Source of the DNA: Gemmatimonadales bacterium
GTDB lineage: Bacteria > Gemmatimonadota > Gemmatimonadetes > Gemmatimonadales > GWC2-71-9
DNA length: 64,000 nucleotides
Assembly (NCBI GenBank): GCA_041615815.1
Contig: JBFJCP010000016.1
Span: forward strand, 1 to 64,000
Direction: 5' to 3'
Below the pieces are notes generated by a model. The model made no database searches, was not told the DNA's origin, and saw nothing but the letters and a program-made list of their open reading frames with translations. This document shows positions 1 through 45,135 of the stretch, piece after piece. A program made the translations under genes and the position numbers. Every line of letters begins with the position of its first letter. Within the stretch, counting starts at the first letter, position 1.

Positions 1-1032
1 AATCCGGAGCACCAACACGTTGACGAAGAGCCCAATGAGTCGCTCGAGTTCTGGAAGCTCACGGTTGGCCACCGGTGACCCAAACACGATCTCGTCCTGA
101 CGGGCGTAACGGGCGAGTGCCACCCCGGTCGCCGCCAGCAGAATCATAAAGAGCGTCGCCCCCTCGGCGTGAGCCACGGCGGTGAGACGCTCCACGTGCA
201 CAGCCGGTATCTCGAACGTCTGAGCGGTCCCGCGGTAGCGTTGGACGGCGGGACGTGGTCGGTCCGTCGGCAGCTCCAGTAACGGTAACTCACCGTCCAG
301 CTGGTCCTGCCAGTAGCGCAGCAGGCGCGCATACCGCTCGCCACTCAGCCAGTGCCGCTGCCAAGCTGCGTAGTCACCGTACCGGACCGGCAACTCGGGA
401 AGCGTGGGCTCGATGTTCTCGAGGTGCGCTTCGTACGCGGCGACGACTTCGCTGCGGAGGATGCCTAGCGACCACCCATCGATCACCGTGTGGTCCGCCG
501 CGAGGAGGAGGATGTGCTCCGACGTGGTCAGACGCAGCAGGCGGGCACGGATCAACGGGCCGGTGGCGAGGTGGAACCCCGCGGTGGCTTCTTCCTCCAG
601 AACCGCCGCAACGGCAGCCGCGCGCTCTTCGTCCGAAAGCGCCGACAAGTCGACCAGTGGGACGTCGAGACGAAGCGACTCCTCCACGATCTGCACCGGC
701 TCCGAACCCAGCATCCCGAACCTCGTGCGTAACGGCGCGTGGCGCTGCACCACGAGGTTGAGGCTCTCGATGAGCGCGCTGGCATCGAGCGGGCCGAGGA
801 TCCGGTAGGCGGTCCGAACCGTGTAGATGGGGGCGTCGGGTTCAAGCTGATCTAGGTACCACAGCCGCTCTTGGGCAAACGACAGCGGTGCGGGAGTGGC
901 ATCGGGCCGTCGAGGGATGCGGGGCGCCGCGTCGTCATCGGTGGCACTCCCGCGCAAACGACGCTCCAACAGGGCGCGCTTGGCCGGCGACAGTTTCGCG
1001 AAGCGCGCCGATCGATCCGGGGCTTCAGACAT
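1..1032 (-). CDS. NRPS subunit 3, N-terminal docking region and condensation domain (partial, runs off left edge)
   Basis: Not in ORF track. ATG at 1032 overlaps the upstream stop (ATGTCTGA). Manual translation gives MSEAPDRSARFAKLSPAKRALLERRL...LSFAQERLWYLDQLEP...ADHTVIDGWS, i.e. the C1 motif and an xHxxxDG motif. Confidence 0.92.
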   Translation of the reverse strand, partial: MSEAPDRSARFAKLSPAKRALLERRLRGSATDDDAAPRIPRRPDATPAPLSFAQERLWYLDQLEPDAPIYTVRTAYRILGPLDASALIESLNLVVQRHAPLRTRFGMLGSEPVQIVEESLRLDVPLVDLSALSDEERAAAVAAVLEEEATAGFHLATGPLIRARLLRLTTSEHILLLAADHTVIDGWSLGILRSEVVAAYEAHLENIEPTLPELPVRYGDYAAWQRHWLSGERYARLLRYWQDQLDGELPLLELPTDRPRPAVQRYRGTAQTFEIPAVHVERLTAVAHAEGATLFMILLAATGVALARYARQDEIVFGSPVANRELPELERLIGLFVNVLVLRI

Positions 1033-4000
1033 CCGATGGATCCGCGGCGGCCAGGCGCTCCGCCTCCTCCTCGGAGAGCGCTTCTACCTCGGCAAGCAGC
1101 AGGTCCTCGATGGCGGTCGCGAGATCGGCGATGGTCGGCGCTTCGAAGATGCGGCGCAACTCGAGTTCGATCTCGAAGTGCCGCCGCACGCGCGCGATGA
1201 TGCGCGTGGCGAGGAGAGAATGTCCGCCCACCTCGAAGAAGTTGTCGTACACGCTCACCTCGGATATCCCGAGCACTTCTTGCCAGGACTCCGCCAAGAA
1301 CCGTTCGGTATCGGTGCGCGGCACAACTCGCTCAACGTCCGATTCCCATTCCAGCTCCCCGGGATCGGGTAGGGCTTTCCGATCCACCTTCCGGGTCGTG
1401 GTCAGGGGGAAGGCGTCCAATTGCACCAACTGCGCCGGCACCATGTACTCCGGAAGTTTCTCTCGGAGGTACTCCCGTAACACGGCGAGATCGACCGTGG
1501 TCCCCGGCTCTTGTGGGACGAAATAGGCTACGATACGCTTGTCGCCGCCACCGCGTTCATAGACGAGGGTCGCCGCCTGCCGCACGTCGGGATGATCCCC
1601 CATCACGGCCTCGATCTCACCTAATTCGATCCGAAATCCGCGGATCTTCACCTGATGGTCCGTCCGCCCGAAAAACTCGAGGTTGCCGTCCGGCCGCCAG
1701 CGGCACACGTCCCCGCTCTTGTACATCCGCGCACCCGGCACGTCGCTGAACGGATTCGGCACGAATCGTTCGGCCGTGAGCTCGGGCCGGTTCAGATACC
1801 CGCGTCCCACCAGCTCCCCACCGATGTAGAGCTCACCCGGCACGCCCACCGGCACGGGTTGGCGCAGCGGATCCAAGACGTAGAGCTGGGTATTCAACAA
1901 GGGGACACCGATCGGGATGTTGGGCATCCCGTCACCGTCTTCATCCCCCGCCGGCCAGAGACTGCACGTCACGGTCGTCTCCGTGGGACCGTAGGAGTTG
2001 AGCCACTCGATGTCGGTTCCCACGATACGACGCCACGCCCGAAACGCGCCGGGCATCGCTGCCTCACCCCCGGCCGCAACCACGCGTACGGTGCTCGGGA
2101 ACGGTGCACCACCTTCCAACGCCCCCACCCACTCGTGCCAAAACGCCGTGGGGAGATCCAGCACGGTGATCTGATTGGACTCCACGAATTCGTGAAACCG
2201 CTCGAACGAGCCGATGAGTTCGGTGGGCAGGAGGACCACACCACCACCCTTCAGCAACATCGGCAAGATCTCTTCGCTTCCGGTGTCGAAAGCGATGGAC
2301 GACAGCTGGAGAATACGATCGTCCTCGTGGAGGGAGAAGAAATCATTGAGGCTGGCGCAGAGATTCATGAACGCCCGATGTTGAATCTCGACGCCCTTGG
2401 GCCGGCCGGTAGATCCTGACGTATAGATGACGTACAGCACGTTCGTGGGATCGGCCGTGCGTCCCAGGTTGTCTGCCGACTCCTCCGCAATGCGATCCCA
2501 ATCGCGATCCAGGCAGATGGTGGTGCCCGGATACGCCGGGAGGCGTTCGAGCATATCCTCGTGCGTGAGCAAGACCGGCGCGTCCGTATCTTCGAAGATG
2601 AAGGTCATTCGCTCGGGGGGATATCGCGGGTCCAGCGGTACATACGCGGCACCGGCTTTGAGAATCCCGAGGAGGCTCACCACCATGTCCAGCGATTTCT
2701 CCACGAACATGCTCACGAGCGATCCGGCGGATACGCCGAATTGCTGGAGATAGCGCGCGAGCTGATTGGCCCGTGCGTTCAACTCACGGAAGGTCAACAC
2801 CCCGTCCGGTGCGATCACCGCCGGAATGTCCGCTCGCGTTGCGGCCTGCTCTTCGAACACCTCGTGGACACAGCGATCGGCTCTGAAGTCGCCGGCCGTG
2901 TCGTTCCACGCGACCACCACCTGATGGCGTTCGTCTTCTGTGAGCAGCTGCAGGGCCCCAATCGGGGTCTCGGGATTGGAGATCGCTGCCCGTGCCAGCG
3001 TCTCGTAATGCCCGATCATGCGGCCAATCGTCTCGGCCTCGAACAGGTTGGTGTTGTACTCGAACCATCCTTGGAGTGCATCTTGGCTCTCGACGATGGA
3101 CAGGGTGAGATCGAAACGCGCCACCTTCGGGTCGATACGCCACGGTGTCATGGTTGCGCCGGGAAGCTCGAGCGTCTCCGTTGGCGCGCTTTGCCAATCG
3201 AACATCACCTGGAAGACTGGGTGGCGATCTACGTTCCGTTCGGGATGGAGTTCCTCTACCAATCGCTCGAAGGGCAACTCCTGGTGCGTGTAGGCATTCA
3301 ACGTCGTCTCGGACACCCGTTGCACGAGGTCGCGAAAGCTCGGATTGTCGGACAGATCCGTTCGGAGCGCGATCGTGTTCACGAAGAAGCCGATCATGTG
3401 CTCCAGCTCACCGCGATTGCGATTGGCGATCGGCGTGCCGACGATGATGTCGCCGAGCCGAGTGTACCGGTGAAGGAGCACCTGGAACAGGGCGAGGAGC
3501 GTCATGAAGAGCGTGACGCCCTGCTCCCGACCGATCTCCCGCAAACCGTCGGCCACCTCGGCGGGAATCGTGAACCCGGTCTCAGCTCCATTTGGCGCCA
3601 GGGCAGCACTGCGAGGTTTGTCCGTCGGCAGCTCGAGAATCGGGAGCCTCCCACCCAACTGATCCATCCAGTACGCGAGCTGCTGGCTCACCACCTCGCC
3701 CTGGAGCCGCTGTCGCTGCCACACCGCAAAGTCCGCATACTGAATCGGTAGGGGCACCAGCACGGGAGGACGTCCGTTCAGTGCCCCACGGTAGAGCTCC
3801 GCAAGCTCCCGTTGAAACACCCCTCGCGACCACCCGTCAAACGCCGCATGGTGCATCGTACAAGCCAGCACATGGTCTCCCCGGTGACGTGAGAAGAGCC
3901 GGGCTCGCAGCAACGGTCCGTTGGCCAGGTCGAACGGCCGCCGCGCTTCCTCCGCCACCAGCGCTTCCAAAGCCGCGTCCCCCATGTCGCCGACATCCTC

Positions 4001-4369
4001 GACGGGAACGGCCACGATCACCGGTGGTCCTATGACCTGCGTCGGGTCTCCATCCACGACGCGAAAGCTGGTGCGCAGGACCTCGTGGCGTTTCACGATC
4101 TCGCTCAGCGCGCCCTCGAGTGCCGCCACGTCCACGGTTCCCCTCAACCGGTAGCAATCCGGGAGATTGTATGCCGGGGTGCCAGGCTCGAGCTGGTCGA
4201 AGAACCAGAGACGCTCCTGCCCGAACGACAAAGGAACGGTGCCCTCCGCCGGACGACGGGGGATGCCGCCGTCGCTGTCCCGACGGATTCCTTTTTGCTC
4301 GAGCATCCGGGCGATCAGGGCGCGCTGGTGCTCGGATGGTCCGGCTGCTCGTGACGGTGGTTGGCTCAC
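1025..4369 (-). CDS. NRPS subunit 2, single module C-A-T
   Basis: C: LSFGQERLWF and HHAAFDG. A: YTSGSTGRPKG, YGPTE, YKSGD, GRTDHQVKIRGFRIELGEIE. T: FFEVGGHSLL. GTG start with AGGAAG upstream. Confidence 0.97.
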   Translation of the reverse strand: MSQPPSRAAGPSEHQRALIARMLEQKGIRRDSDGGIPRRPAEGTVPLSFGQERLWFFDQLEPGTPAYNLPDCYRLRGTVDVAALEGALSEIVKRHEVLRTSFRVVDGDPTQVIGPPVIVAVPVEDVGDMGDAALEALVAEEARRPFDLANGPLLRARLFSRHRGDHVLACTMHHAAFDGWSRGVFQRELAELYRGALNGRPPVLVPLPIQYADFAVWQRQRLQGEVVSQQLAYWMDQLGGRLPILELPTDKPRSAALAPNGAETGFTIPAEVADGLREIGREQGVTLFMTLLALFQVLLHRYTRLGDIIVGTPIANRNRGELEHMIGFFVNTIALRTDLSDNPSFRDLVQRVSETTLNAYTHQELPFERLVEELHPERNVDRHPVFQVMFDWQSAPTETLELPGATMTPWRIDPKVARFDLTLSIVESQDALQGWFEYNTNLFEAETIGRMIGHYETLARAAISNPETPIGALQLLTEDERHQVVVAWNDTAGDFRADRCVHEVFEEQAATRADIPAVIAPDGVLTFRELNARANQLARYLQQFGVSAGSLVSMFVEKSLDMVVSLLGILKAGAAYVPLDPRYPPERMTFIFEDTDAPVLLTHEDMLERLPAYPGTTICLDRDWDRIAEESADNLGRTADPTNVLYVIYTSGSTGRPKGVEIQHRAFMNLCASLNDFFSLHEDDRILQLSSIAFDTGSEEILPMLLKGGGVVLLPTELIGSFERFHEFVESNQITVLDLPTAFWHEWVGALEGGAPFPSTVRVVAAGGEAAMPGAFRAWRRIVGTDIEWLNSYGPTETTVTCSLWPAGDEDGDGMPNIPIGVPLLNTQLYVLDPLRQPVPVGVPGELYIGGELVGRGYLNRPELTAERFVPNPFSDVPGARMYKSGDVCRWRPDGNLEFFGRTDHQVKIRGFRIELGEIEAVMGDHPDVRQAATLVYERGGGDKRIVAYFVPQEPGTTVDLAVLREYLREKLPEYMVPAQLVQLDAFPLTTTRKVDRKALPDPGELEWESDVERVVPRTDTERFLAESWQEVLGISEVSVYDNFFEVGGHSLLATRIIARVRRHFEIELELRRIFEAPTIADLATAIEDLLLAEVEALSEEEAERLAAADPSDV

Positions 4370-4389
4370 GCTTGCTTCCTCATGGGTGT

Positions 4390-7300
4390 CTATTCCGACA
4401 GCTGCGCCCGCACTTCGTCGTCGGACAACCCCTCGACGACCAAGAGGGTGTCTGCGATCTCGTCCACGACCTCTCTCCCACCCACGAGGTCGGCTAATTC
4501 TCCTACGAGGCCAGCGACCGTGGGGTGTTCGAAGAGCCCGCGCACCGGGACTTCGATTTGAAACCAGTCGCGCAAACGTGACACGACCTGGGTGGCCAGC
4601 AGCGAGTGTCCGCCGAGCTCGAAAAAGTTGTCGTCGATCCCGAGCGTCTCGACCGCCAGCACCTGTTGCCAGATGCCGTGGACGAACCGCTCCGCCGACG
4701 ACTGGGGCGCGCGGCCCGTGGCTGCACTAGTCCCTTGTTCGGGCACCGGCAGCGCCGCCCGGTCTACTTTACCATTGGGCGTGAGTGGAAGACGTTCCAA
4801 GAACACGTACTGCGCCGGCACCATATAGTCGGGCAACCGCTCGCGCAGGAAACGCCACAAGGTGGGTTGACGGAGGCCGTCTGCTCCAACGACATAGGCC
4901 ACCAGCCGCGATCGCCCCTCACTCTCCCAGAGTGCCACGGCGCATCGTCGCACCTCGGGATGCCGGTGCAACGCCTGCTCCACGTCCGCGAGCTCCACGC
5001 GGAATCCGCGGATCTTCACCTGATGGTCACGCCGCCCAATCAACTCCAATTGCCCATCGTTGCGGACGCGGGCCAGATCGCCGGTGCGGAACAGCCGGTC
5101 GTACGAGCCCTCCGCAAACGGGTTTTCGATGAATCGCTCGGCGGTCAAGGCGGGCAAGTTCAGGTACCCGTTGGCCAGGCACGCCCCAGCCACGCACATC
5201 TCACCGGTTGCCCCCTGTGGGACAGGCCGGAGACGCTCGTCGAGCACGTAGACGCGGGTGTTGGCCAGGGGTTTCCCAATGGGAACTCGCTCCGCGCTCA
5301 ACGACAGCTGTCTGGTGTCGTACACCGTCACGTTGGACGAACATTCCGTCGACCCGTACAAGTTGAGCAGCGGTACATCGTCGAAACACCGACGCCACCG
5401 AGCCACCATGGAAACGGGGATCGGTTCGGCGCTGGTGGAGGCAAAGCGGAGCGTCTGCCACTCCTCCGGATGTTGTTCGGCTTGATCCAGGATTCCCTCG
5501 AAAAACGCCGGTGATGCCAAGACGTGGCTGACGCCGTGGGTCACGAGGCGGCGCCAGATTGCGGCCGGATCGATGATCTCATCCTGTGACAGAATGACCG
5601 TCGGTATTCCCACCAGCAGTCCGCCAAAACACTCCCATGTGGCGGCCACGAGCGCATACGATTTCTGCAGCAGCGCCACATCACCGTCACGGAAGGGAAA
5701 CTCCTCCCACATCCAGCGAAGGCGATTGAGCACTGCCCGCATGGTGATCAGTGCGCCCTTTGGAGTCCCCGTGCTCGCCGAGGTGTACACCACGTTGAGA
5801 ACGCTGTCCGGCGTGGTCACCGGTGTCGGGTCTTCCAACCGCTCCTGTCCGATGGCTGATTGTTCCACATCCAGGACGATCGTGGTATCCGCAAAGTCCG
5901 TGAAGCGATTCAGCGTGGAGTGCACGATCAACACGTCCGGTTCGGCGTCGTCGAGGATCGCCTCGAGTCGGGGAGTGGGATACGTGGGCTCCAGCGCCAC
6001 ATAGGTTCCCCCCGCTTTCAGGACACCGAGAATAGCAACCATCATATCGAACGAGCGTGGGAGGCAGAGGGCTACCCGCGTACCCGTACTCACTTCGCGG
6101 GCCCTCAAGTAATGCGCGAGTTGATTGGCGCGCTCGTTGAGCTCGACATAGGAGATGCTCTGGCCTTCCCACAACAGGGCCGGCTCGTCCGGCGTTCGCC
6201 GTACTTGGGCCTCGAACAGCTCCGCGATGCCGGCCGAGAGATCGAAATCGCGATGCGTATCGTTCATCTCTTCCAGCAGCGCCTGACGCTCGGCCTCAGA
6301 CACCACGGGGAGCGTTGAGATGGGACGGTTGGGATTCTCAACCACACTCCGCAGCAGAGCCTCGTAATTCGCCACCATGCGGGCCACCGTCGCCTCGTCG
6401 AACAGATCGCTGAGGTAGGCGATTTGGACGAACAGCCGTTCGCCCTGCTCCTGCGCGTAAAACGACATGTCGTACTTCGTGTAACCCGTATCCAGCTCGC
6501 TGAACGAAAGGGTGAGGCCTTCCACTTCGCAGGCGGTGTGGGGAAGGTTCAGCATGTTGAACATGACTTGGAACACGGGCGAGACGCTCGTGTCCCGAGC
6601 GGTCCGTGTCCCTTCCGCCATCCACATGAACGGGTATTCGGCATTGCTGATGGCACCGGTCACTCTGGCGCGGACTCGTTCCATCAGCTCGAGGAAGGTC
6701 GGGTCATCGTCCAGCAGGGCCCGGAGCGGCAGCATGTTGAGAAAGAATCCCACGATCGCTTCGCTGTGCGCTGCCGTGCGATTGGCGATCGGCGATCCGA
6801 TGATGACGTCGTCTTGGCCGGAGTATCGCTGGAGCAACACGTACGATGCGGCCAACAGCGTCATGAACAATGTCGCGTTGGCGTCCGTGCTCAGCGCTCG
6901 CAGGCGTCCCGTGAGCTCGGCCTCGAGCATGGCGGTTTGGGCCGCACCGCGATACGTCGGTGTATTGGATCTGGGGCGGTCCACGGGCAACGCAAGGATC
7001 GGAAGTTCTCCCGCGAGTTGCTCTTGCCAATAGAGCTCCTGGGCTCTGAGCTTATCGCGCTGTAGCCGCTCCTGTTCCCACAACACGTAGTCGCCAAAGC
7101 CCACGGGCAGCGCGGGGAGCGGCTCCGACTCGCCCTGCCGGATCCGCCTATACAACTCACCGAGATCCTTCACGATCACGGAGATGCCCCAGAGATCGAG
7201 GATGATCTCTTGAAAGGTGATCAGGAGCTCATGGTGATCTTCGGCCAGCTTGAAGAGCTCGGGTTGCAGCAACGCGTCCAGCTCGAGGTCCAGTGCCCGT

Positions 7301-10300
7301 CGACCCTTGACTGCCGCTCGTGCTTGCAGATGGGAAAGCCGCTCCGCTTCCGGCAGGTGCGTGAGGTCGACGACCGAAAGTTCCGCGCATCGCCGATCAT
7401 CGAAGATCTGCACGGGACGATCGCCCTCCGTCGCAAATCGTGCTCGCAGCACGTCGTGGCGTTCGACGACGCCCCGCCAGGCTTCGCGCAACGCCGCCAG
7501 GTCGAGGTCGCCTCTGATGTGAATCGTCCCCTGCGCGGTGTAATAGGGGCTCTCGGGTTCCAGCCGCCAGAGGAACCACACGCCCTGTTGTGCCAGGCTC
7601 AACGGGTAGGCGGTTCGCCCATCCCGCTCCGCACCGCCCAGCTGCTGCAAGACCCCTTCTTGCACTTCCTCACCCAATCGCTCAGCGAGCTGTGCCACGG
7701 TGCCGTGCTCGAAAAGGTCTCGGAAGCTCACGGATGCGTCGAACACCTGGCGAAGACGATTGAGCACCTGCATGGCGAGGAGCGAGTCGCCGCCAAGCTC
7801 AAAAAACCCGTCGTGTACACCCACTCGCTCGAGTCCAAGTACCTCCGCCCAGATCGCAGCCACCCGTTCCTCGCGGGGGGTCCGCGGTGCCGTATACGGT
7901 TCGGCGAGCTCCGGCCGCACCACATCTGGCTCGGGCAACGCCTGCACGTCGAGTTTGCGATTCGCATTCAGCGGGAGGGCATCGAGTTGAATCAGCTGCT
8001 GCGGGATCATGTGCGCGGGGAGCTCGCTCTCGAGGAACTGGCGCAACGCAGACGGGGCCAGGCTCTCCCGCGTGGTGTAGTAAGCCACGAGCACCTTTTT
8101 CCCCTCAGCCCCCCCCGACGCTCTCACGTCTCGCTCCTTCGCCACCAGTGTGCCACGACCGGAACGCGCGGTGCGCACGAGCGCGGCACAATTCGCGACG
8201 GCGGGATGGCGCCGGACGCTCGCCTCCACGTCCCCGAGCTCCACACGAATACCACGCAACTTGACGAGGTTGTCGCGCCGTCCTAAGAACTCGATGGTCC
8301 CATCAGGGGTCCACCGACCCAGATCGCCCGTTCGGAAAACGGGATCTGCATCCCCGTCCGGCAGCGAATGGTCGAGGAAACGCGATGCCGTTTCCTGTTC
8401 CCGTTTGAAATAGCCAAGCGTCAGGTACGGGCTGCGGATGAAGAGCTCGCCCTGCACCCCGATAGGACACGGCAGCCCCGCCTTGTCGAGAATCAGAATC
8501 TGCCGGCCGCGAATCGGTCTCCCCACGGGCACGCTCTGGTCACCGGGCGACACTCGATCCACGTGATGGTACGAGGCCAGTACGGTTTCGCTGGGCCCGT
8601 ACAGATTGTACAGGGCCGGTGCGTCGGGAAACCGCAGAAGGTCGCGTGCCAAATCCACCGGGAGTACTTCACCGGCGAGCAACAGCAGCCGAACCGATGG
8701 CAAGGGGTGTCCGTCACCCTCCGCATGTTGCCGCAACACCTCTACGAGCTCACGGCAGAAGCTCGGAACGATCTGCAGGATGGTGATCCCCTCACGCCGC
8801 ACCCAATCCGCAAGCGCCGTCGGGTCATACCGCACCGCCTCGCTCGCCATGCACAACGTCGCTCCGAAACAGAGCGTGCCGAAAATCTCACAGTACGACG
8901 CATCGTAGGCGATCGATGCCCACTGTGCCCACCGTTCCGATGCGCCAATGTGGAATTGATCGCTCTGCCAAGTCACGAACTGTACGAAACTGCGATGCGA
9001 CTGCACGATCCCCTTGGGTCTGCCGGTGGACCCCGAGGTGTAAACGATGTACGCAACTCCGCTGGGATCGACATCGAGCCCGGGATTCTCGGCAGCCAGT
9101 TCGGCGAAGATAGCGTTCTCGGCGGGCTCCTCAGCATCGGCGTCCATCATCACTACGTGCGCCGCTGCGCGCTCGACCCACGCTGCGAGGTCCGGATGTC
9201 TGGCAAGCGCCCGAGCGTCCGCGATCAGGAACTCGGTCTCGGTTTCCTCGAGAATCTCCAGCAGACGGCGCGTAGGATGGACGGGATCCAGACAGACGAA
9301 GGCCGCCCCTGTCTTCAAGACACCCAGCATCGCCGTCACCTGCTGTGGTCCGTTCTCCAACAGCACCGCAACAGGTTGTTGGGCTTGGACGCCGTCGGCG
9401 ACGAGCCGGTGGGCAACGCGGTTGGCCTCACGGTTCAACTCGTCGTACGTGACGTGCCCCTCGCCGAAGGTGATAGCGATCGCCTCGGGCGTCTCGGCAA
9501 CATGTGCCTCGAAGAGCTCGTGTAGTGCTCTCGTGGGCGGCTCATCGTGGCGAGCATCCCATTCGGCGAGCTGCTGCGTCTCAGACGACGACAACAACGA
9601 CACAGTCGAGGGCGGTTGGTCCGGCTCGGTGATGGCCCCGTCCAACAGCTGTTCCAGATGGCCTGCGAGCCGCGCGGCGTCCGCCGCACCGAACACATCG
9701 GATGCATACCGCACGACGGCCCGGGGGACGCCGTCCCCCTCCTCCACCACCACCTCGAGATCGCATTCGGGACCAACGGGAACGACCTCCACCTCGGTGA
9801 CGACGAGCCGTTGCGCGGCATTGGAGAGCAGGGCTGAGCGGTGCCGAACGGTGAACCCCACCTGAGGCCGCGGGGGCGCCACGGGAGTGGAAGGCTGCGT
9901 TTCCGCCGCCTCCAGCTGCGCCGCCACTTGCTGCGACCACGCGCGAAAGGATCCGCCGCTCGAGAGCTCCACCGTGATCGGCTGCCGCTGCTCCAACGGT
10001 CCCACGATTCCGTCGCCGCCTTCGGCAGGAGCGTCCCGGCGCGCGAGCCACACGGTCACTCGATCCTCGTCGGAATACCGCCCCAGCAAGGCCACCACTG
10101 CCGTCAGCAGCAAGACGTGCACGGTGGTACCGACCTCGGTAGCCACGGTGTCCAGACCCTCGAGCGTGGGAGCGGGCAAGCTCAACGGTGCCGTGCGCGC
10201 CGTGGGCGGCCCGTCTGCGTGTATCGCGTGGCCAGGAAGGTGGAGCCGCTCAGGCTCGATGCCGCGTTGGGGACCAGATGGACCGTCCAGCCATGCTCTG

Positions 10301-10917
10301 AACGACGGGGCCTTCGGCTCGGTGAACACCGCACGCGAGTCCCTCTCGAGACGGAGATAGGTGGTCACGAGATCCTCGCCAAGCAGCAGGAGCGAGGGTT
10401 CGTCCGCGATGAGGCGGTGCGCGACGAGCACGAGCACATGCTCTCGGCGCGGCATGTGCACGATCGTGGCATCCAGCAGCGGCGGCGACCCAAGGTCGAA
10501 CTCTTTTCCGGCCGCCATGGCGACGAGCGCATCGCAGTGCGCCTCCGCGTCCCCAACCGTCTCCGCCGAAAGGTCGACGGTGCGGACACTCCCCGGAGCA
10601 GTCCGGAGCGTGTGTTGCATGGGCGGACCGTTGCGGACGGTGAAGCCGGTGCGCAGGGCGTCATGACGGACCAGGAGCGCGTCCAGGGCTGTGCCCAGCA
10701 CCGCGCGGTCCACCACACCGGTCAACCGCAGCCGGGCCACGACGTTGCGGATTCCCTGCTGGTGGGGCCCGTGTTGCAGATGCCAGATACGATCCTGCTC
10801 GGCGGACAGCCGAAACTCGCCCGCGCGGCCCGGAACCCCAGGCACGGCCGTCCGAGGTCGGTACCGGCCCCGGAGACGATCGAGCGTATCCATGGATGAC
10901 GTCATGGGCGGGCGCAT
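4390..10917 (-). CDS. NRPS subunit 1, two modules C*-A-T-C*-A-T, both C domains non-canonical
   Basis: Two A domains (YTSGSTGRPKG; YTSASTGTPKG) and two T domains (GGDSL; GGHSL). C motifs read HRLIADE and QEIILDL. Confidence 0.96.
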   Translation of the reverse strand: MRPPMTSSMDTLDRLRGRYRPRTAVPGVPGRAGEFRLSAEQDRIWHLQHGPHQQGIRNVVARLRLTGVVDRAVLGTALDALLVRHDALRTGFTVRNGPPMQHTLRTAPGSVRTVDLSAETVGDAEAHCDALVAMAAGKEFDLGSPPLLDATIVHMPRREHVLVLVAHRLIADEPSLLLLGEDLVTTYLRLERDSRAVFTEPKAPSFRAWLDGPSGPQRGIEPERLHLPGHAIHADGPPTARTAPLSLPAPTLEGLDTVATEVGTTVHVLLLTAVVALLGRYSDEDRVTVWLARRDAPAEGGDGIVGPLEQRQPITVELSSGGSFRAWSQQVAAQLEAAETQPSTPVAPPRPQVGFTVRHRSALLSNAAQRLVVTEVEVVPVGPECDLEVVVEEGDGVPRAVVRYASDVFGAADAARLAGHLEQLLDGAITEPDQPPSTVSLLSSSETQQLAEWDARHDEPPTRALHELFEAHVAETPEAIAITFGEGHVTYDELNREANRVAHRLVADGVQAQQPVAVLLENGPQQVTAMLGVLKTGAAFVCLDPVHPTRRLLEILEETETEFLIADARALARHPDLAAWVERAAAHVVMMDADAEEPAENAIFAELAAENPGLDVDPSGVAYIVYTSGSTGRPKGIVQSHRSFVQFVTWQSDQFHIGASERWAQWASIAYDASYCEIFGTLCFGATLCMASEAVRYDPTALADWVRREGITILQIVPSFCRELVEVLRQHAEGDGHPLPSVRLLLLAGEVLPVDLARDLLRFPDAPALYNLYGPSETVLASYHHVDRVSPGDQSVPVGRPIRGRQILILDKAGLPCPIGVQGELFIRSPYLTLGYFKREQETASRFLDHSLPDGDADPVFRTGDLGRWTPDGTIEFLGRRDNLVKLRGIRVELGDVEASVRRHPAVANCAALVRTARSGRGTLVAKERDVRASGGAEGKKVLVAYYTTRESLAPSALRQFLESELPAHMIPQQLIQLDALPLNANRKLDVQALPEPDVVRPELAEPYTAPRTPREERVAAIWAEVLGLERVGVHDGFFELGGDSLLAMQVLNRLRQVFDASVSFRDLFEHGTVAQLAERLGEEVQEGVLQQLGGAERDGRTAYPLSLAQQGVWFLWRLEPESPYYTAQGTIHIRGDLDLAALREAWRGVVERHDVLRARFATEGDRPVQIFDDRRCAELSVVDLTHLPEAERLSHLQARAAVKGRRALDLELDALLQPELFKLAEDHHELLITFQEIILDLWGISVIVKDLGELYRRIRQGESEPLPALPVGFGDYVLWEQERLQRDKLRAQELYWQEQLAGELPILALPVDRPRSNTPTYRGAAQTAMLEAELTGRLRALSTDANATLFMTLLAASYVLLQRYSGQDDVIIGSPIANRTAAHSEAIVGFFLNMLPLRALLDDDPTFLELMERVRARVTGAISNAEYPFMWMAEGTRTARDTSVSPVFQVMFNMLNLPHTACEVEGLTLSFSELDTGYTKYDMSFYAQEQGERLFVQIAYLSDLFDEATVARMVANYEALLRSVVENPNRPISTLPVVSEAERQALLEEMNDTHRDFDLSAGIAELFEAQVRRTPDEPALLWEGQSISYVELNERANQLAHYLRAREVSTGTRVALCLPRSFDMMVAILGVLKAGGTYVALEPTYPTPRLEAILDDAEPDVLIVHSTLNRFTDFADTTIVLDVEQSAIGQERLEDPTPVTTPDSVLNVVYTSASTGTPKGALITMRAVLNRLRWMWEEFPFRDGDVALLQKSYALVAATWECFGGLLVGIPTVILSQDEIIDPAAIWRRLVTHGVSHVLASPAFFEGILDQAEQHPEEWQTLRFASTSAEPIPVSMVARWRRCFDDVPLLNLYGSTECSSNVTVYDTRQLSLSAERVPIGKPLANTRVYVLDERLRPVPQGATGEMCVAGACLANGYLNLPALTAERFIENPFAEGSYDRLFRTGDLARVRNDGQLELIGRRDHQVKIRGFRVELADVEQALHRHPEVRRCAVALWESEGRSRLVAYVVGADGLRQPTLWRFLRERLPDYMVPAQYVFLERLPLTPNGKVDRAALPVPEQGTSAATGRAPQSSAERFVHGIWQQVLAVETLGIDDNFFELGGHSLLATQVVSRLRDWFQIEVPVRGLFEHPTVAGLVGELADLVGGREVVDEIADTLLVVEGLSDDEVRAQLSE

Positions 10918-10932
10918 TCGGAGGACTCTCGC

Positions 10933-12462
10933 TCAGGCCAACCCGAGCTCGGTAGCCCACGAATGGCGGCGGCGGCGGAAGCACTCGTGTGCCGCGTTGA
11001 TGTCGTCCGCCATCACGCGGTCTTTGTCGAGGAAGGTGACATGCTGGCGAAACTCGTCAAAAATCTCCTGCGTGATGGGTGAGAGTCGCAGCTCCTTGTT
11101 GAGCTCGATCGCTTGGGCTGCCGTCATCAACTCGATGGCCATGATGTAGGTCGCGTTCTCTACCACCGTCATGAGCTTGTACGCAGATGTCCCACCCATG
11201 CTGACGTGATCCTCCTGGAGCTGACAGGTGGGAATGGTATCCACGCTCGCCGGTGTGCACAGCACCTTGTTCTCGTTGACCAGCGCTGCCGACGTATACT
11301 GGGCAATCATGAAACCGGAATTGAGTCCGGGCTTGTTCACGAGGAAATCGGGCAGCCCCCGCTGTCCGGAGAGCAGCTGATAGGTGCGCCGTTCCGAGAT
11401 ATTGGCCAGCTCGCTGGTCGCCATGGCCAAAAAGTCGAGCATGAACGCCGGCGATTCGCCGTGGAGATTGCCGCCGAAGAGAATCGTATCCTCATCCGGG
11501 AAGAACAGCGGATTGTCCGACACACCGTTCAACTCTTGCTCGATCACCTGGGTCGCAAAGTTCACGACCTGCCGAATAGCGCCATGCACCTGCGGGGTGC
11601 ATCGGAACGAATACGGATCCTGCTTCGACTGATTGCATGTGGGGAGCTCGTGATGATTGCTGCCCTCGAGCAGCTTCACCATGTTCCGCGCCACGGTGCT
11701 CCGCTCGGCGTGGTGCGACGTGCTGTGATAGAGCGGCTGATAGAACGTCTCGGAGGTGCTGAACGCCTGCGAGCTGAGAGCGGCCAAAAGGTCGGCGCAC
11801 TTCACCAAATCCACGATCTGCAGCAGGCACTCGACGGCGATGGCCGTGATGTACTGCACACCGTTGGTCAGCGCCAAGCCCTCTTTCGGCTTGAGCCGGA
11901 GCGGCGCGGCCCCGAGCGCCTTCAAGGCCTCTGCCCCATCGATCGTGGTGCCGTTCCGATGGACCTGACCGAGACCGAGCAACGGGAGCGCCATATGGGC
12001 AAGGGGTGCCAGGTCTCCGCTGGCCCCCACCGTGCCCTTCTTCGGAATCACGGGAATCAGTTCCTGATTCCACAGTTCGAGCAGCCTTGTCACGGGATCG
12101 AGCGAGATACCGGTGTGACCGCTCCGAAAGGTGAGCAGCTTGATGAGCAGCGTCAGCCGGGAGATGCGCTCCGGAACGGCCTCCCCCACACCTACCGCGT
12201 GCGACACGACGTGGTTGAACTGCAGCGCCTCCATCTCGTCGCCCGCCACCCGCGTCTCGCAGAGCGAGCCGAAGCCCGTATTCGTACCGTAGATGTAGCG
12301 ATCTTCGGCTGCTTTGGCGCGCACGAACTCCGCCCCTCGATTGATTCTCGCTTGAACCGCCGACGACAGTGCGAGGCGAGGTCTTTCCTCGACCAGACGA
12401 CCGAGGTCACCCAGCGAGTAGTAGTCCATCGAGACCGCATGAGTCTTGGTGGCTGTCACCAT
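10933..12462 (-). CDS. MIO-dependent aromatic amino acid lyase/aminomutase family enzyme, histidine ammonia-lyase-like
   Basis: YGTNTGFG, VSHAVGVG, GTVGASGDLAPLAH (MIO-forming ASG), QDPYSFRC, GFMIAQY, QEDHVSM. Start moved to ATG 12462 (GGAGG upstream), giving 509 aa. Confidence 0.95.
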   Translation of the reverse strand: MVTATKTHAVSMDYYSLGDLGRLVEERPRLALSSAVQARINRGAEFVRAKAAEDRYIYGTNTGFGSLCETRVAGDEMEALQFNHVVSHAVGVGEAVPERISRLTLLIKLLTFRSGHTGISLDPVTRLLELWNQELIPVIPKKGTVGASGDLAPLAHMALPLLGLGQVHRNGTTIDGAEALKALGAAPLRLKPKEGLALTNGVQYITAIAVECLLQIVDLVKCADLLAALSSQAFSTSETFYQPLYHSTSHHAERSTVARNMVKLLEGSNHHELPTCNQSKQDPYSFRCTPQVHGAIRQVVNFATQVIEQELNGVSDNPLFFPDEDTILFGGNLHGESPAFMLDFLAMATSELANISERRTYQLLSGQRGLPDFLVNKPGLNSGFMIAQYTSAALVNENKVLCTPASVDTIPTCQLQEDHVSMGGTSAYKLMTVVENATYIMAIELMTAAQAIELNKELRLSPITQEIFDEFRQHVTFLDKDRVMADDINAAHECFRRRRHSWATELGLA

Positions 12463-12484
12463 GCTCCGTAGCTCCTCCGACACA

Positions 12485-13471
12485 TCAGGCAGATCGTAGC
12501 CGCTGTCGTTGCGACCTCCGTTCGAGTTGTTCCAGGCAATCTCGGATCGCCCCGTAGTCCTCGTCGGCCAGCTTTTGACCGTGCGAGAACGGGAAGGATT
12601 CTGGAATCTCGCGGAATGGCTCGACCGGCGCACCGTGCTCGTTCATGAACGTGGCGATCCGCGCCAGCTCGGACCGTGGCCGCTCACAGACGTCGCGGTA
12701 GCGGACCTCGAGAAACCGGTCGTTCCCTACCGCGCGGCGTTGCCGCTCGAGGTGTTCCCGCACGTAAAACACTTGCTTACACACTTGATGACTCAACGCC
12801 TCGCCGCTGATCTCATCGCACTCGGGCGGTCGCCCGCCGAACCAGTCGGGATAGTCGGTCTGCCGCGCACGAAAGATCGATTGCGCGGTGTCCGCGAGAT
12901 CACGACTCACGAGAATAAAGATTGCCCGGGGAAAGATCCGGACCAGCGCCTCGATTCTGAGGTTCAGCGAACAGGTCTTGTTTACGAACGGCAACCGGAA
13001 AACACGCTCGGTATCCGCCACGGCCCGGTACATCTTCTCGATCTGCGTGGGCGTCAGGGTCTTCGCAGCCACTGCGTCGTACTTCGTGCCAAAATAATGT
13101 CCCCAGATCTGTTCACCCTCAGCCGGAGCGCTCTTTCCGCGAATCTGGCCGAAGCGGCTCTGGAAGGGGGCAGCCTCGTAATGATCGTCCGTGGGGGGCG
13201 ACCCGCAGAAGAGATGGACCATCCGCGCCGTGGTATACGGCAGCGGCCGTCCAAGGAGCCGGAACGATTCGCCCATCAGATTGGTGAAGTGACACGTGGT
13301 GAGCCCCCACGAAACCACCTGCCGAGTCACGGTGGTGCCGCTCCGCGCCGGCCCGACGATGAACGTCGGGGGAAAGCGGAGCTCGTAGGGACGCCGCGGG
13401 AACCGCTCCACGACTTGCAGGAGCCGGTACATGGACCTGCGGGCGGCAATTGCGAGTTTCCATCGCTTCAC
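12485..13471 (-). CDS. Sulfotransferase family protein
   Basis: 5'-PSB-like FIVGPARSGTT and 3'-PB-like ILVSRDLADTAQS. GTG start overlaps the thioesterase stop (GTGA) with a GGAGG RBS. Confidence 0.88.
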   Translation of the reverse strand: MKRWKLAIAARRSMYRLLQVVERFPRRPYELRFPPTFIVGPARSGTTVTRQVVSWGLTTCHFTNLMGESFRLLGRPLPYTTARMVHLFCGSPPTDDHYEAAPFQSRFGQIRGKSAPAEGEQIWGHYFGTKYDAVAAKTLTPTQIEKMYRAVADTERVFRLPFVNKTCSLNLRIEALVRIFPRAIFILVSRDLADTAQSIFRARQTDYPDWFGGRPPECDEISGEALSHQVCKQVFYVREHLERQRRAVGNDRFLEVRYRDVCERPRSELARIATFMNEHGAPVEPFREIPESFPFSHGQKLADEDYGAIRDCLEQLERRSQRQRLRSA

Positions 13472-14313
13472 CCGGCACCTCCCCACAGCCACGCCGCGAG
13501 ATCCTGCGCCACTGTCTCAAGCACATCAGCGCGCGCGTCTTGGAGAAAGAAATGCCCTCCGGGAAAGAGTCGGACCGCCGCCACGCTGTCCGTGTGGACG
13601 CGCCACCCCTCGAGCTCCCCGACGGGCACGAGCTGATCCTTTTCACCGCCGAGGATCGAGATGGGACACGCAAGCGGATGCTCGGTTCGGTGCTCATAGG
13701 TTTCGAAAACCCGAAAATCGGCCCGCAGCGTGGGGAGAACGAGATCCAGGAGCTCGTCGTTCCCCAGCAACTCCTCGGGAACGGTGCCGAGCCGGCGCAA
13801 TCCCGCCACGAAGTCCTCCCGCGGGAGTCCGTGCAACGGGTTCGACCGTGGAGTTTGCGGCGCCGGGGAGCCGGCCACGAAAAGCCCCACCGGACCCGGG
13901 AGCCCGTGGCGCCTCTGCCATCGGGCGAGCTCGAAGGCAATGAGGCCACCAAGACTGTGGCCAAAGAGACAAAACGGGGTTTCCGTCCATGGCTCGAGCG
14001 CCGGACCGACTGCTTCGAGCAAGGCCGCGAGATCGTCAAGCGGCGCCTCCACCCATCGTGTCTCTCGCCCGGGGAGTTGCACTCCGCAGACCTCGATGTC
14101 CGGCGGCAGCACGTTCTCCCAACTGCGAAACGCCGAAGCGCTGCCTCCGGCATGGGGAAAACCAATCAAGCGCACTCGAGCGCCGGGCCGGGGACGCACG
14201 TACGGCACCCAGCGACTGCGGCGACTCGCGCGCGGCACGTCCACGTCTGTCGAGACCGATTGTACTCCGTCGATGATCGCCTCCTGGATTGTGTGTCGCG
14301 ATTCGCGGTTCAC
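13468..14313 (-). CDS. Type II (editing) thioesterase, GrsT-like
   Basis: FPHAGGSAS, GHSLGG nucleophile motif, LRAD, GGHFF. Confidence 0.93.
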   Translation of the reverse strand: MNRESRHTIQEAIIDGVQSVSTDVDVPRASRRSRWVPYVRPRPGARVRLIGFPHAGGSASAFRSWENVLPPDIEVCGVQLPGRETRWVEAPLDDLAALLEAVGPALEPWTETPFCLFGHSLGGLIAFELARWQRRHGLPGPVGLFVAGSPAPQTPRSNPLHGLPREDFVAGLRRLGTVPEELLGNDELLDLVLPTLRADFRVFETYEHRTEHPLACPISILGGEKDQLVPVGELEGWRVHTDSVAAVRLFPGGHFFLQDARADVLETVAQDLAAWLWGGAG

Positions 14314-14663
14314 GGCGTGGCCCCTACTGAACGACCGAGGGCTCGGGAGGCCACACGCTCCATACCTTGAGGCTTCAGCATCTGAGCAAGCTTGGAGCCA
14401 TCCAGCGCGCGCGGATTGACCCGATTGTGAGTCTCTAACTGTTGTAGAGCCAGTAAGTTACGTGACTTGGCGCCAACGACGTGGGAGGGTGGTGGCTTCT
14501 TGGGTGTGGCGGAGATGCAACATGCGGGTGGGTCTCGACGTCGCCGAGCGAGGGATTCGGGCTAGGGGTTAGGGGCGACGATACGCTGGGGATCGGGGAT
14601 CGGGCAAGAAGTTCCCCCCCCACTAGATCGGATGCGAACCCGCGGGACCCGCAACGTGAGCGC

Positions 14664-15512
14664 CTAACGGACACTCTCTGGACGCTCGGGCTGCTTCCCC
14701 TCCTCCACCCAGGGTTTGCAACAGTCGTCCAGTAAATACTTCCAGCCCGCCGCCATATGTTGCTCGACCTCGGGAGCGAGCGCACCAAAGAGACTGTCTC
14801 GGAACTGTACCAGCGTCGCGGCGTCCTCGGACTTCAGCGTAAAGGACGTTATCGACCGTCCGGGACCCCCGAACTCCGCCGGGAGATCGCCCACCCACTG
14901 CAGCACCTCACCGCTCCGCACGGTCGTGACGGTAGCCCAGAGCGCTCCCTCCCCACCCCCCCAATCCTCGTAGACGCGACCGCCCACCCGTGGCTCGATC
15001 CGAAACGCCACCGGCGACGTTCCCACGTAGAACTTCTTGGGCCACCATGCAGCGATCTCCTCGACCAGGGCCCCCCACACCCGGGACCGCGGCGCGTCGA
15101 TCCGCGCCTCGAGCTGGACGTCCACGGTCCGAAAACCACGTTCTGTCTTGGTCTGTGTCATCGGCGTCTCTCCCGGCAGCCGCTCCGCGATCGCCTTCAG
15201 CCGCAACAGTCGCTGCGGCGACTCACCCTCGAACGGGCGGATCCATCGTCGTGCGATCTGCTGGATAGGTACAGGGTTCAGGTGGTTCCACCGCTCCCGG
15301 CCACGGCGACGCACGAATACCAGCCCAGCCTCGACCAGCACTTGTAGGTGCTTCATGACGCCAAATCGGCTCACGGGAAACTCGTTGGCGAGATCGCCGG
15401 TGGTTCGCGGACGTTCACGAAGCAAGTCCAGAATGGCCCGGCGCGTGGGGTCGGCCAACGCCTTCCAGGCGGGAGGATCGTCCGTACGGCGCTGTTGCAG
15501 AGGCTGGAACAT
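14664..15512 (-). CDS. ArsR-family HTH regulator fused to an SRPBCC/AHSA1 domain
   Basis: WKALADPTRRAILDLL...VMKHLQVLVEAGLV followed by IDAPRSRVW...GW. Confidence 0.9.
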   Translation of the reverse strand: MFQPLQQRRTDDPPAWKALADPTRRAILDLLRERPRTTGDLANEFPVSRFGVMKHLQVLVEAGLVFVRRRGRERWNHLNPVPIQQIARRWIRPFEGESPQRLLRLKAIAERLPGETPMTQTKTERGFRTVDVQLEARIDAPRSRVWGALVEEIAAWWPKKFYVGTSPVAFRIEPRVGGRVYEDWGGGEGALWATVTTVRSGEVLQWVGDLPAEFGGPGRSITSFTLKSEDAATLVQFRDSLFGALAPEVEQHMAAGWKYLLDDCCKPWVEEGKQPERPESVR

Positions 15513-16058: not shown

Positions 16059-17297
16059 GTGTCATTACACGCTCCACACCCCGCTTTTGTCTGGGGCACG
16101 GGCTATCATGGCCTTGCCGTCTGTCGCAGTCTCGGCCGTCGCGGGATCCCGGTGGTCGTCTTCACCGGTTCGCCTCACGATATCGTTGCGCAATCACGAT
16201 ACGTGACGCGCGTCGTCCCGCTCACGGAACCCTTGAACGCTGCGGACTTCGTCACGGTCGCGTCCGAGGAATCGGCGCGGTTCCGGCGCCAACCGGTCTT
16301 CATCCCCATTCAGGATGCCTATCTCGAACTGATCTCGTCGCAGCGTGATCGACTCGCAGCACACGGTCTCGTCGATCTCCCGCCGCACGCACGGGTGGAG
16401 ATCGTGTCGGACAAGGCCCGCTTTGCGCAGCGATGTCGGCGTGCGGGGCTACCGATTCCGCACACGCAGGTGCTCGCGGCGCACGAAGACCTGGTACCCG
16501 CTGCGGAGCAACTTCCCTTCCCAGCCGTGCTCAAACCCACCAAATCGGTCGTCTGGGAGCAGCCGCGTGTGGTCGAGGCGTTCCACCGCGACAAGATTCT
16601 GATCGTGCACGACAAAGCCACGTTTCTCGCACAAGGAAGGCGTCTCTTGACGATCGCCGGCCCTCTCGTGGCGCAAGAGCTGGTGCCCGGACCATCCAAA
16701 CAGGAATTCGATTACCTCTCGTTCCGAAGCGAGGACTCCCATCGCTCCGTGGGACTCCTCACCGAGAAGCTCCGCCAACTCCCCATCACGGGCGGCAGCG
16801 GGAGCCTGCGTCGCCTCGTCGTACGATCCCGTCTGGAGAGCCTGGCGCACGACGCCCTCGACGCGCTCGGATGGACCGGTCCATCGGAGGTGAGCCTCAA
16901 GGTCGACGCTCGAACAGATACGCCGCGACTCATCGAGGTAAACGGGCGGCTCCCAGCCTGGTGTGCCCTGGCCTCCTGGTGCGACGTGGACTTTCCGCAC
17001 CTTGTTTATCGCAGTGCCATCGGGGATCACGGTGCCCGCCCTCCGCAGCCTTCGCGGCCGCGCGGGTACTGGATGGTGCTCGACATGGACGTGCGCGCGG
17101 CTCGGTCCGAAATGCGGGCGGGTGGGCTCTCGGTGATGGCGTGGCTCCGGTCGCTTCTGCGGGTTCGCTCGTGTGCGGAGCTCGCCCGAGACGATTGGAC
17201 ACCCATCGTCTGGGCGCTGAAGCGATTGATCCGCGCGCCGTGGGCACAACTTGCATCCACCATTCGCCGCCTGATTCCCGTTCGAGACACGGCCTGA
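16059..17297 (+). CDS. ATP-grasp carboxylate-amine ligase (D-aspartate ligase-like)
   Basis: DKARF, FPAVLKP, QELVPG, LIEVNGR; N-terminal GLAVCRSLGRRGI. Confidence 0.85.
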   Translation: MSLHAPHPAFVWGTGYHGLAVCRSLGRRGIPVVVFTGSPHDIVAQSRYVTRVVPLTEPLNAADFVTVASEESARFRRQPVFIPIQDAYLELISSQRDRLAAHGLVDLPPHARVEIVSDKARFAQRCRRAGLPIPHTQVLAAHEDLVPAAEQLPFPAVLKPTKSVVWEQPRVVEAFHRDKILIVHDKATFLAQGRRLLTIAGPLVAQELVPGPSKQEFDYLSFRSEDSHRSVGLLTEKLRQLPITGGSGSLRRLVVRSRLESLAHDALDALGWTGPSEVSLKVDARTDTPRLIEVNGRLPAWCALASWCDVDFPHLVYRSAIGDHGARPPQPSRPRGYWMVLDMDVRAARSEMRAGGLSVMAWLRSLLRVRSCAELARDDWTPIVWALKRLIRAPWAQLASTIRRLIPVRDTA

Positions 17298-32523: not shown

Positions 32524-32835
32524 TGAGCGATTGCCAGTGCCATTCGCAACCAACGCTGACGCCAAATGCCATCGTTTGTCCAGTGCATTTGTCCAGCGAA
32601 GCTCCGCATCGGCGTCTTGCACCACATCCACTGTTGCCAATCGCAAGGTACACGACAGTGCAGTGACGGCGTGCCCATGCTAATCCACGCCAAGCGGACC
32701 CAGGTCTCGTTACGCGTGTAACCTCGATCACCGCGCAGCATCTGCACGATCGTTAGGTTCGCACTTCACTCTCTGTAGCAGAACTCAAAACACATCTCGA
32801 GCACCCGAATGCGCGCCTCGGGGCGGGAGGACCCC

Positions 32836-41703: not shown

Positions 41704-42354
41704 TCAGTCGGCTTGAAACGCTACTCGGTTGTGGCTCCCGTCGCAGAACGGCTTGTTCTGCGATTGCCCGCAGCGGCAGCACCAGGCTTGCTCGGTGAAA
41801 TGGCTCGATTGCTCACCGTCGTGACTGCGGAGGTGAAACGATCCCTCGAGGAGGAGCGGACCGTCGGGCTGCGGTTTTATGGTTAGGCGGCCGGCGCGAC
41901 GCTCGGTCGTTGGCTCGTTCGGCACAGTGAAGTTGCCCTCGTCCTCAAAATCGACATCTAAGTGGCTGTTGTCACAGAACGGTTTGTTGTGCGACGCACC
42001 ACACCGGCAGAGCGCGGCACGTGTCTGTTCCGACACACCTTCCGGCGTGTAGATCTCGAGATCGCCACGCGCGTACAAGGGCCCGTCCGCCTCGACGGTC
42101 ACTTCGTTGGCCCTGGGTGGGACTTCCTCGAGCCCGCCGTCCTGGCGGGTGTACTGGAGGGCGCCCGTGGGACACGCCATCACGACATTCGCGATCTCGT
42201 CCGCATTGGCCTGCGACAGGTCCACCCAGGGCCGCCGCTTGGGATCGAAGACCCGCGGTAGTCCCTTCACGCACTCCGCCGCGTGAATGCATCGTTTGAC
42301 ATCGTAGCGGATGACGATCGCATCCGACTCGTAGGTTCGGATCGTTGGTGGCAT
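41704..42354 (-). CDS. Divergent 4Fe-4S ferredoxin domain plus two CDGSH Fe-S domains
   Basis: CIHAAEC...CPTGAL; CRCGASHNKPFCDNSH; CRCGQSQNKPFCDGSH. Confidence 0.9.
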   Translation of the reverse strand: MPPTIRTYESDAIVIRYDVKRCIHAAECVKGLPRVFDPKRRPWVDLSQANADEIANVVMACPTGALQYTRQDGGLEEVPPRANEVTVEADGPLYARGDLEIYTPEGVSEQTRAALCRCGASHNKPFCDNSHLDVDFEDEGNFTVPNEPTTERRAGRLTIKPQPDGPLLLEGSFHLRSHDGEQSSHFTEQAWCCRCGQSQNKPFCDGSHNRVAFQAD

Positions 42355-45038: not shown

Positions 45039-45135
45039 CAAACCGTCTCCTGCGAACGGGGAAGAGTATGGGACAAGGTATGCACGACCCAGGATTGTTC
45101 CCAGGCGCCCTACGATGTGCCTGGTTGAGAGACCG

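Follow-up and report, generated by a model that had tools for sequence, protein, structure and literature searches.

A 64,000-nucleotide stretch of a Gemmatimonadales genome (GenBank assembly GCA_041615815.1; 4.19 Mb in 73 contigs), referred to here as the window, starts with base 1 of contig C16, and its positions 1-14313 carry six co-oriented open reading frames, all on the minus strand, of a nonribosomal peptide synthetase (NRPS) operon. Their Pfam content is Thioesterase, Sulfotransfer_3, Lyase_aromatic, C-A-T-C-A-T, C-A-T and a truncated C, where C, A and T denote condensation, adenylation and thiolation domains. The first gene encodes a type II thioesterase (TEII) of the editing kind (13468-14313; PF00975, 151 bits), the true start of which may be a GTG near 14214, and it is followed by a sulfotransferase of 328 aa (12485-13471; PF13469, E 4e-18) and by an enzyme of about 509 aa with the Ala-Ser-Gly (ASG) triad that gives the 4-methylideneimidazole-5-one (MIO) group (10933-12462), placed in a clade resembling histidine ammonia-lyase (HAL) by TIGR01225, residues, tree and fold. 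NRPS1 has 2175 aa, with three C, two A and two T matches in Pfam, and consists of a degenerate N-terminal C-like domain with the motif HRLIADE (9553-10842), A1-T1 of module 1 (7675-9531), a C2 domain with QEIILDLWG replacing HHxxxDG (6274-7614) and A2-T2 of module 2 (4390-6240). NRPS2 (1025-4369; 1114 aa) is C-A3-T, and the N-terminal part of the NRPS3 C domain occupies 1-1032. The TEII stop and the sulfotransferase start overlap in GTGA (13471-13468), and NRPS2 and NRPS3 are joined by a ATGTCTGA overlap (1032-1025), both read directly in the sequence. The MIO gene probably starts at the ATG at 12462, which is preceded by GGAG; given this start, its junction with the sulfotransferase stop is a gap of about 22 bp and no overlap. 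GC content across the cluster region (62-65%) is similar to that of the remaining window, and no match to a sigma-70 promoter or a terminator was found at 14200-14700. The tightly packed operon with these two overlaps that the sequence-only reading had described is thus borne out, as is its expectation that the cluster runs on past the left edge.

The continuation lies on contig C1. NRPS3 residues 298-344 match the start of C1 at 100%, and the end of C16 (window positions 1-141, unstranded) shares with the start of C1 an exact 141-bp overlap that is unique in the genome. C1 supplies the rest of NRPS3 (C1:1-2448), which becomes a C-A4-T protein of about 1112 aa with no thioesterase (TE) domain, two alpha/beta hydrolases with an Arg elbow (C1:2445-3224) and a Cys elbow (C1: about 3221-4120), and an Sfp-type phosphopantetheinyl transferase (PPTase; C1, to 4869), after which stands an unrelated fasciclin gene; the cluster genes on C1 overlap one another via GTGA or TGATG. 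The join is well supported because a genome of the same genus (G001) has all nine genes in identical order on one contig, at 44-75% identity. The operon is therefore real and complete, with nine genes (TEII, sulfotransferase, MIO enzyme, three NRPS genes with four modules, the Cys/Arg hydrolase pair and the PPTase) in about 19 kb, and it lacks a terminal thioesterase. A five-module NRPS on contig C49 was considered as its continuation and ruled out, as C49 links to C36 and C16 only to C1.

The MIO enzyme passes the HutH cut-offs (TIGR01225, 545.5 against 539.15; NF006871, 566.3 against 524) and scores below those for tyrosine 2,3-aminomutase (TIGR03832, 328 against 501), the phenylalanine aminomutase AdmH (TIGR04475, 332.6 against 800) and the tyrosine ammonia-lyase FlxA (314 against 700). 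The best fold matches of its AlphaFold model (pLDDT 84.6) are HALs. In an alignment to 1GKM, which sets the residue numbering used here, it shares with Pseudomonas putida HutH (1B8F/1GKM; TM about 0.87) Q277 and, invariant in 120/120 of the top homologues, ASG, Y53, S82/H83, N195, Y280, R283, M382 and E414; the roles of such residues in HAL are in part those given in PMC11432326. The two differ in that identity is only about 38%, F329 is replaced by leucine (120/120 clade members, against phenylalanine in 76/76 control HALs, two of the 78 controls having been dropped as too short), the gene lies inside NRPS operons, and the genome encodes a separate HAL, 38-39% identical to the MIO enzyme, on C9 beside urocanase and amidohydrolase genes. 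An extra histidine four residues before H83 occurs in 110/120 clade members and 0/76 controls, and a cysteine precedes the QEDH motif in 111/120. The top 120 homologues (64-77% identity) belong, as far as they are named, to Chloroflexota, Pyrinomonadaceae, myxobacteria and Kangiella, and cultured bacteria with a clade enzyme include Phaselicystis flava (AYM54407) and Stigmatella (WP_272140311). In a quick maximum-likelihood tree with a midpoint root, built from 62 rows that comprised the full-length clade loci, one in four of the long controls, SgcC4 and ten genome hits, the clade has an SH-aLRT support of 100 and a long stem, and stands beside Bacteroidota HALs and away from SgcC4. By the tests applied, the enzyme falls outside the tyrosine aminomutase, phenylalanine aminomutase and catabolic HAL groups, and it forms a separate clade in this tree. 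This clade is rare, with carriers in 3/401 genomes searched in the source phylum, 2/401 in the phylum of genome G061 and 1/401 in that of G062.

The A domain of module 1 is of a beta type. A-domain codes were read by aligning A cores on motif anchors, and A1 gives DACQLAL followed by LAK or VLK, the last positions depending on gap placement. Against SgcC1 of the C-1027 pathway (sequence from NZ_CP013739, Streptomyces globisporus plasmid SGLP1), A1 scores 271 bits, as compared with only 158-166 bits for A2-A4. D235 is kept in A1, and the loop after YGPSE is one residue short, the same deletion as in SgcC1; a short loop after YGPxE is a mark of A domains for beta-amino acids. A1 is thus well supported by sequence as SgcC1-like, of the beta-aryl amino acid type, and is the only module so supported as beta. 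The C-like domain in front of it is probably non-catalytic; its identity to the counterpart in G001 is 33%, where the other domains reach 65-72%, and SgcC1 carries a similar C-like extension. Since this domain is degenerate, poorly conserved and missing from three of the eight loci that share the cassette described below (L108, L133 and G342), A1 is probably the starter module. The domain was also considered as a recruiter of the sulfotransferase, an idea weakened by G342, which is without it and yet has the sulfotransferase. The pairing of a MIO enzyme with a C-like extension and an A domain that has D235 and lacks one loop residue is likewise found in SgcC4, the tyrosine 2,3-aminomutase of C-1027, and SgcC1, and by analogy the MIO enzyme and A1 may work as that beta-amino acid system does. 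In contrast to SgcC1, whose code is DPAQLMLIAK against DACQLALVLK here, A1 is part of a multimodular NRPS with no enediyne genes and with a sulfotransferase, an odd C2-A2 module and a hydrolase pair.

The association of the clade with such A domains extends beyond this genome. Of 43 metagenome loci collected with a clade-specific pattern, 17 showed the short-loop beta-type A signature, against 0/78 control HAL loci (80 generic-pattern loci minus two clade members), and where at least 4 kb of flank was available on both sides the counts were 8/10 and 0/47. A second A motif type (DAPHLALLVK-like) was seen in 4/43 clade loci (1/10 of those with long flanks), and urocanase (hutU) was a neighbour in 0/43, against 27/78 controls. 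These counts are tallies and no test, because most controls come from Bacteroidota and the clade loci share ancestry. In proteins of L104, L106/L131, L121 and L145, an intact HHxxxDG-like C domain stands in front of the short-loop A domain, and several of the short-loop domains hold a methyltransferase insert. Beside the clade genes of L110, L121, L131 and L102 the A domains are interrupted by a methyltransferase, and TauD dioxygenases and a B12 radical SAM enzyme are among the neighbours there. In L101 and L137 the MIO gene runs together with a stand-alone A(DVCQMVVAAK)-T and a luciferase-like monooxygenase, and a separate NRPS lies opposite.

The reading we favour, with a probability of roughly 0.55, is that of a four-module TE-less operon in which the HAL-like MIO enzyme would act as a histidine 2,3-aminomutase and the SgcC1-like A1 would load beta-histidine as the starter. 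Taken by itself, the MIO enzyme is a reasonably good candidate for a histidine 2,3-aminomutase supplying beta-histidine; no described histidine aminomutase was found in a literature search that covered few subscription journals. Several observations weigh against this reading. A1 is only 36.5% identical to SgcC1 and has 5-6 of ten code positions in common with it, and the code labels used below for Gly, beta-Ala and Lys are provisional. Neither beta signature was found in 22/43 clade loci, nearly all of them short-flanked, and at L098 no A domain is present despite long flanks. The controls are not matched by taxon, the clade loci are related to the point that L106 and L131 have identical enzymes, and the tree is a quick one with its root set at the midpoint. 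The serine/histidine pair at the selectivity switch and a tyrosine equivalent to SgcC4 Y415 are common to tyrosine aminomutase, and the outcome of mutase or lyase is said in PMC9002059 to hinge on loop flexibility and temperature, which a sequence does not reveal. The nearest outgroup of the sulfotransferase (40%, in genome G1315) sits in a polysaccharide locus, and no sulfotransferase was seen in the DNA examined of two cassette loci, L108 and L133.

The alternative that survives best, although unlikely, is compatible with the beta-histidine reading and concerns the end of the line: the hydrolase pair would move the peptide onto a surface glycan, and the sulfotransferase would act on that glycan. 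The tandem pair, with GLRFG and GLCSG elbows (GLRLG and GLCSG in G001 and G342), resembles the exosortase A-associated hydrolases 2 and 1 (TIGR03101 and TIGR03100), at scores about half the family cut-offs (99 against 203 and 101 against 168), and differs from them in following a TE-less Gly module with no adjacent exosortase or glycan genes. The Cys-elbow hydrolase matched only generic alpha/beta hydrolase clusters in the ESM Atlas. The sulfotransferase carries the motifs GPARSGTT and SRDLADTAQS, which we take to be like those that bind 3'-phosphoadenosine 5'-phosphosulfate (PAPS), and its family is small (32 matches, most 41-59% identical); an adenosine 5'-phosphosulfate (APS) kinase is encoded in the genome. 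The further homologue in G1315 (40-43%) lies without any NRPS amid glycosyltransferases, a UDP-sugar dehydrogenase and FemAB genes, and in G342 a Wzc-like gene lies some 10 kb upstream, both of which would suit a glycan acceptor. However, no glycan genes stand beside the operon in either the source genome or G001, and the Chloroflexota copies end in ordinary TE domains and yet keep the sulfotransferase, so that there the sulfate target is unlikely to be tied to the hydrolase pair. The G1315 polysaccharide locus itself (L153, 7486-19029) contains several FemAB/GNAT genes. The other NRPS of the source genome, on C49 and C36, likewise ends in a Gly module followed by a Cys/Arg hydrolase pair, which is split across the two contigs; it has five modules (L002 on C49, 300-17544, and L156 on C36, 14-763), with one gene ending in a TE and the other in a Gly module without one.

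A role of the MIO enzyme as a tyrosine (or phenylalanine) aminomutase, evolved independently from an ancestral HAL, is less probable; A1 would then load beta-tyrosine and the sulfotransferase would O-sulfate its phenol. The beta-tyrosine loader SgcC1 is the closest characterised relative of A1 among those tested, a phenol is an easy target for sulfation, and tyrosine may yet be a substrate because the switch pair (S92/H93 equivalents) and the Y415 equivalent match tyrosine aminomutase. Against this, the enzyme is only 34% identical to SgcC4, which has Q442 in an NQD where the MIO enzyme reads QED with E414, and which has no equivalent of M382; both HAL-type residues are invariant throughout the top homologues, the tyrosine aminomutase and FlxA cut-offs are far from reached, and the clade is sister to HALs and not to SgcC4.

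A dedicated histidine ammonia-lyase making a urocanate acyl starter, or some other non-beta derivative of histidine, appears just as improbable as the tyrosine route. The hutH cut-off is passed, A1 as the first working module could accept a starter acid, and urocanate starters exist, as in the imidacins of Stigmatella aurantiaca (PMC11301661), which resemble the system proposed here in bringing a histidine-derived imidazole starter to an assembly line. There, however, urocanate comes from a distant housekeeping HAL and is used by a polyketide synthase (PKS), whereas here the enzyme is encoded in the cluster next to an Asp-bearing beta-type A domain with its short loop, and such a housekeeping HAL is already present in the genome. 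Moreover, the substrate of this A type would need an amine, because at four independent loci domains of this type serve in elongation, each preceded by an intact C domain, and urocanate has none.

The modules that follow are less uniform than the sequence-only reading had proposed, which took all three readable A domains for beta classes and the modules for consecutive beta types: the assignment stood for A1 and became partial for A2 and evenly divided for A3, and the fourth module, beyond the edge, is of the Gly type. The end of the cluster (hydrolase pair, PPTase, no TE) and the place of the MIO enzyme in a separate HAL-like clade bound to NRPSs were likewise out of view for that reading. 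The A2 code, VAWLSSLSNK, has V235 and W239, has lost D236 and D331, and has G302 changed to A. In a comparison of 411 A cores its nearest neighbours outside the family carry VDWV-SLADK codes (37-38% identity), and VDWxxSLADK is a pattern that we take to be the beta-Ala code. A2 would thus lie in the beta-Ala clade and yet probably does not load plain beta-alanine. The altered C2 motif, [HQ]EIxxDLW, is found in 8/8 cassette loci, and the C2-A2 unit would be a module type of its own because it also occurs behind other donors, in P0342, P0420 and P0397; the donors before the HE-type C and Asp-less A module in these three have the codes DARSVSQMTK, DIWQCVSDGK and DARHLSFMIK. Searches with C2-A2 and with the A2 core were dominated by long NRPSs, and few family members surfaced. 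A3 (DTEDAGSVTK; DTEDSGSVTK in G001) is of the basic-residue type, with a code of the DTED type, a pattern linked to beta-Lys, and has a full-length loop; its substrate could about equally be Lys or beta-Lys. A4 (DILQLGMVWK) has what we assume to be a Gly-type code, and module 4 very probably adds Gly. No paper was found for six A-domain code strings, among them the beta-Ala and beta-Lys ones (the Gly string was not searched), nor any literature on a beta-alanine A domain with Asp235 in an NRPS, and nothing closely related to A1, A2, A3 or the sulfotransferase turned up in searches of solved structures. That a beta-aryl amino acid, beta-alanine and beta-lysine are taken up in succession by modules 1-3 is the least probable of the alternatives, for although the neighbours of A2, the DTED start of A3 and a KamA-family gene elsewhere in the genome (on C27; 442 bits, below the cut-off of 525) would favour three consecutive beta residues, A2 is without D236 and D331 in every copy read, C2 is without the usual motif, the A3 loop is full-length with ApnA A1 as its nearest single-domain structure, and no lysine 2,3-aminomutase is among the nine cluster genes.

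What is new at this locus is a portable MIO-A1-C2-A2-TEII cassette. The MIO gene with A1-T-C2-A2-T was found in eight loci (the source genome, G001, G342, G061, G1071, L108, L133 and L135); the A2 code was read in the source genome, G001, L108 and L133, and the other four were assigned by 54-62% identity and the C2 motif. TEII stands beside the cassette in 6/8 of these loci, its orthologues being 47-54% identical, and the sulfotransferase is found in 6/8. In G342 it lies on a second contig together with C-A(Gly)-T, both hydrolases and the PPTase, a contig that we infer to be linked to the one with the cassette. The tails vary: G342 and L135 have a Cy-A(Cys)-T-oxidase (Cy, cyclization domain), G061 Pro and a TE, G1071 a TE directly, and L108 Gly alone. 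After the cassette G061 has an acyl-CoA dehydrogenase, a Pro-type ligase and two flavin halogenases, an order that is the same in G1071 by its open reading frame listing, and these genes recall halopyrrole formation; such a line next to an imidazole line resembles, on our assumption, the parts of pyrrole-imidazole alkaloids. An AT3 acyltransferase and C-T-TE genes also follow the cassette in both (L143, 1917-19945; L147, 3556-12940). The minimal version in L108 (2791-18923; MIO, A1-T-C2-A2-T and C-A(Gly)-T) lies directly behind a TonB-dependent receptor, FecR and an ECF sigma factor and is followed by a PhyH gene, a setting that suggests a metal-binding or signalling role. No plasmid record reached 60% identity to A1 or to the MIO enzyme, the best 40 listed for each being at 37-45%. 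A matching characterised cluster was likewise not found, and no cut-off of an NCBIfam named NRPS was reached, in searches that did not include MIBiG. The view that this is an orphan cluster, that its sulfotransferase is intact and that its starter module is of the beta-aryl type is supported, and the hint of the sequence-only reading to use labelled histidine points the right way.

On the favoured reading the pathway would run as follows. The MIO enzyme would quite plausibly turn L-His into beta-His, which would then be loaded on T1. The second unit is more doubtful: a small beta-alanine-like acid without a cationic end, preferably a hydroxy acid of the glycerate or 3-hydroxypropionate type, is tentatively proposed for A2, to be joined by the altered C2, while plain beta-alanine is a weaker candidate and N-sulfo-beta-alanine a poor one. 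Module 3 would add Lys or beta-Lys, with little to choose between them, and module 4 in all probability Gly, after which the Cys-elbow hydrolase with its Arg-elbow partner would take the chain off T4 by hydrolysis or by transfer to an acceptor. The PAPS-dependent sulfotransferase would add one sulfate, conceivably, at somewhat less than even odds, to the module-2 unit and with less likelihood to the free beta-amine of the starter. TEII would edit and the PPTase would prime the carriers. For an amine of this kind, allopeptimicin B of Actinoallomurus (AptB; PMC9169493) is a precedent of N-sulfation, although its assembly line is a PKS-NRPS with a 3-aminobutyrate starter. The product is predicted to be a sulfated four-unit peptide that likely starts with beta-histidine; its structure is weakly constrained, and all the chemistry is inferred.

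Other genes of the window were also surveyed. An ArsR-AHSA1 fusion (14664-15512, minus strand) is encoded on the TEII strand, 350 bp upstream of that gene, where G001 has an M16 peptidase instead, and ATP-grasp ligase-like genes at 16059-17297 (plus strand) and 22234-23610 (minus strand) stand amid an M24 peptidase, an amidohydrolase and an M55 D-aminopeptidase. The ArsR gene and the first ATP-grasp gene were considered as cluster members, and nothing ties either to the NRPS. Further along, all on the minus strand, are a Ser/Thr protein kinase fused to an alpha/beta hydrolase (30532-32646) and a CDGSH, Fer4_19, Rieske and TPP enzyme fusion (42381-45041), which is followed by a second CDGSH/Fer4_19 gene (41704-42354).

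It is tempting to propose, though the full proposal falls somewhat short of even odds, that the MIO clade represents the histidine 2,3-aminomutase so far missing and forms, together with A1, the [HQ]ExxxDLW C domain, the Asp-less A2 and the sulfotransferase, a portable warhead cassette: a sulfated beta-histidyl unit with a non-standard bond (an ester or an N-acyl sulfamate) would be grafted onto varied peptide tails in several phyla, including the halopyrrole-linked Chloroflexota lines. The C2-A2 module and the TE-less release by a hydrolase pair would be two more uncharacterised NRPS chemistries within the same 19 kb, and a single 509-aa enzyme with one A domain offers a compact test system. 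If the reading is true, the gap of a histidine aminomutase would be filled and a biocatalyst for a chiral imidazole beta-amino acid gained, a whole clade annotated as 'histidine ammonia-lyase' would prove mislabelled, and a new A-domain code would become available for genome mining.

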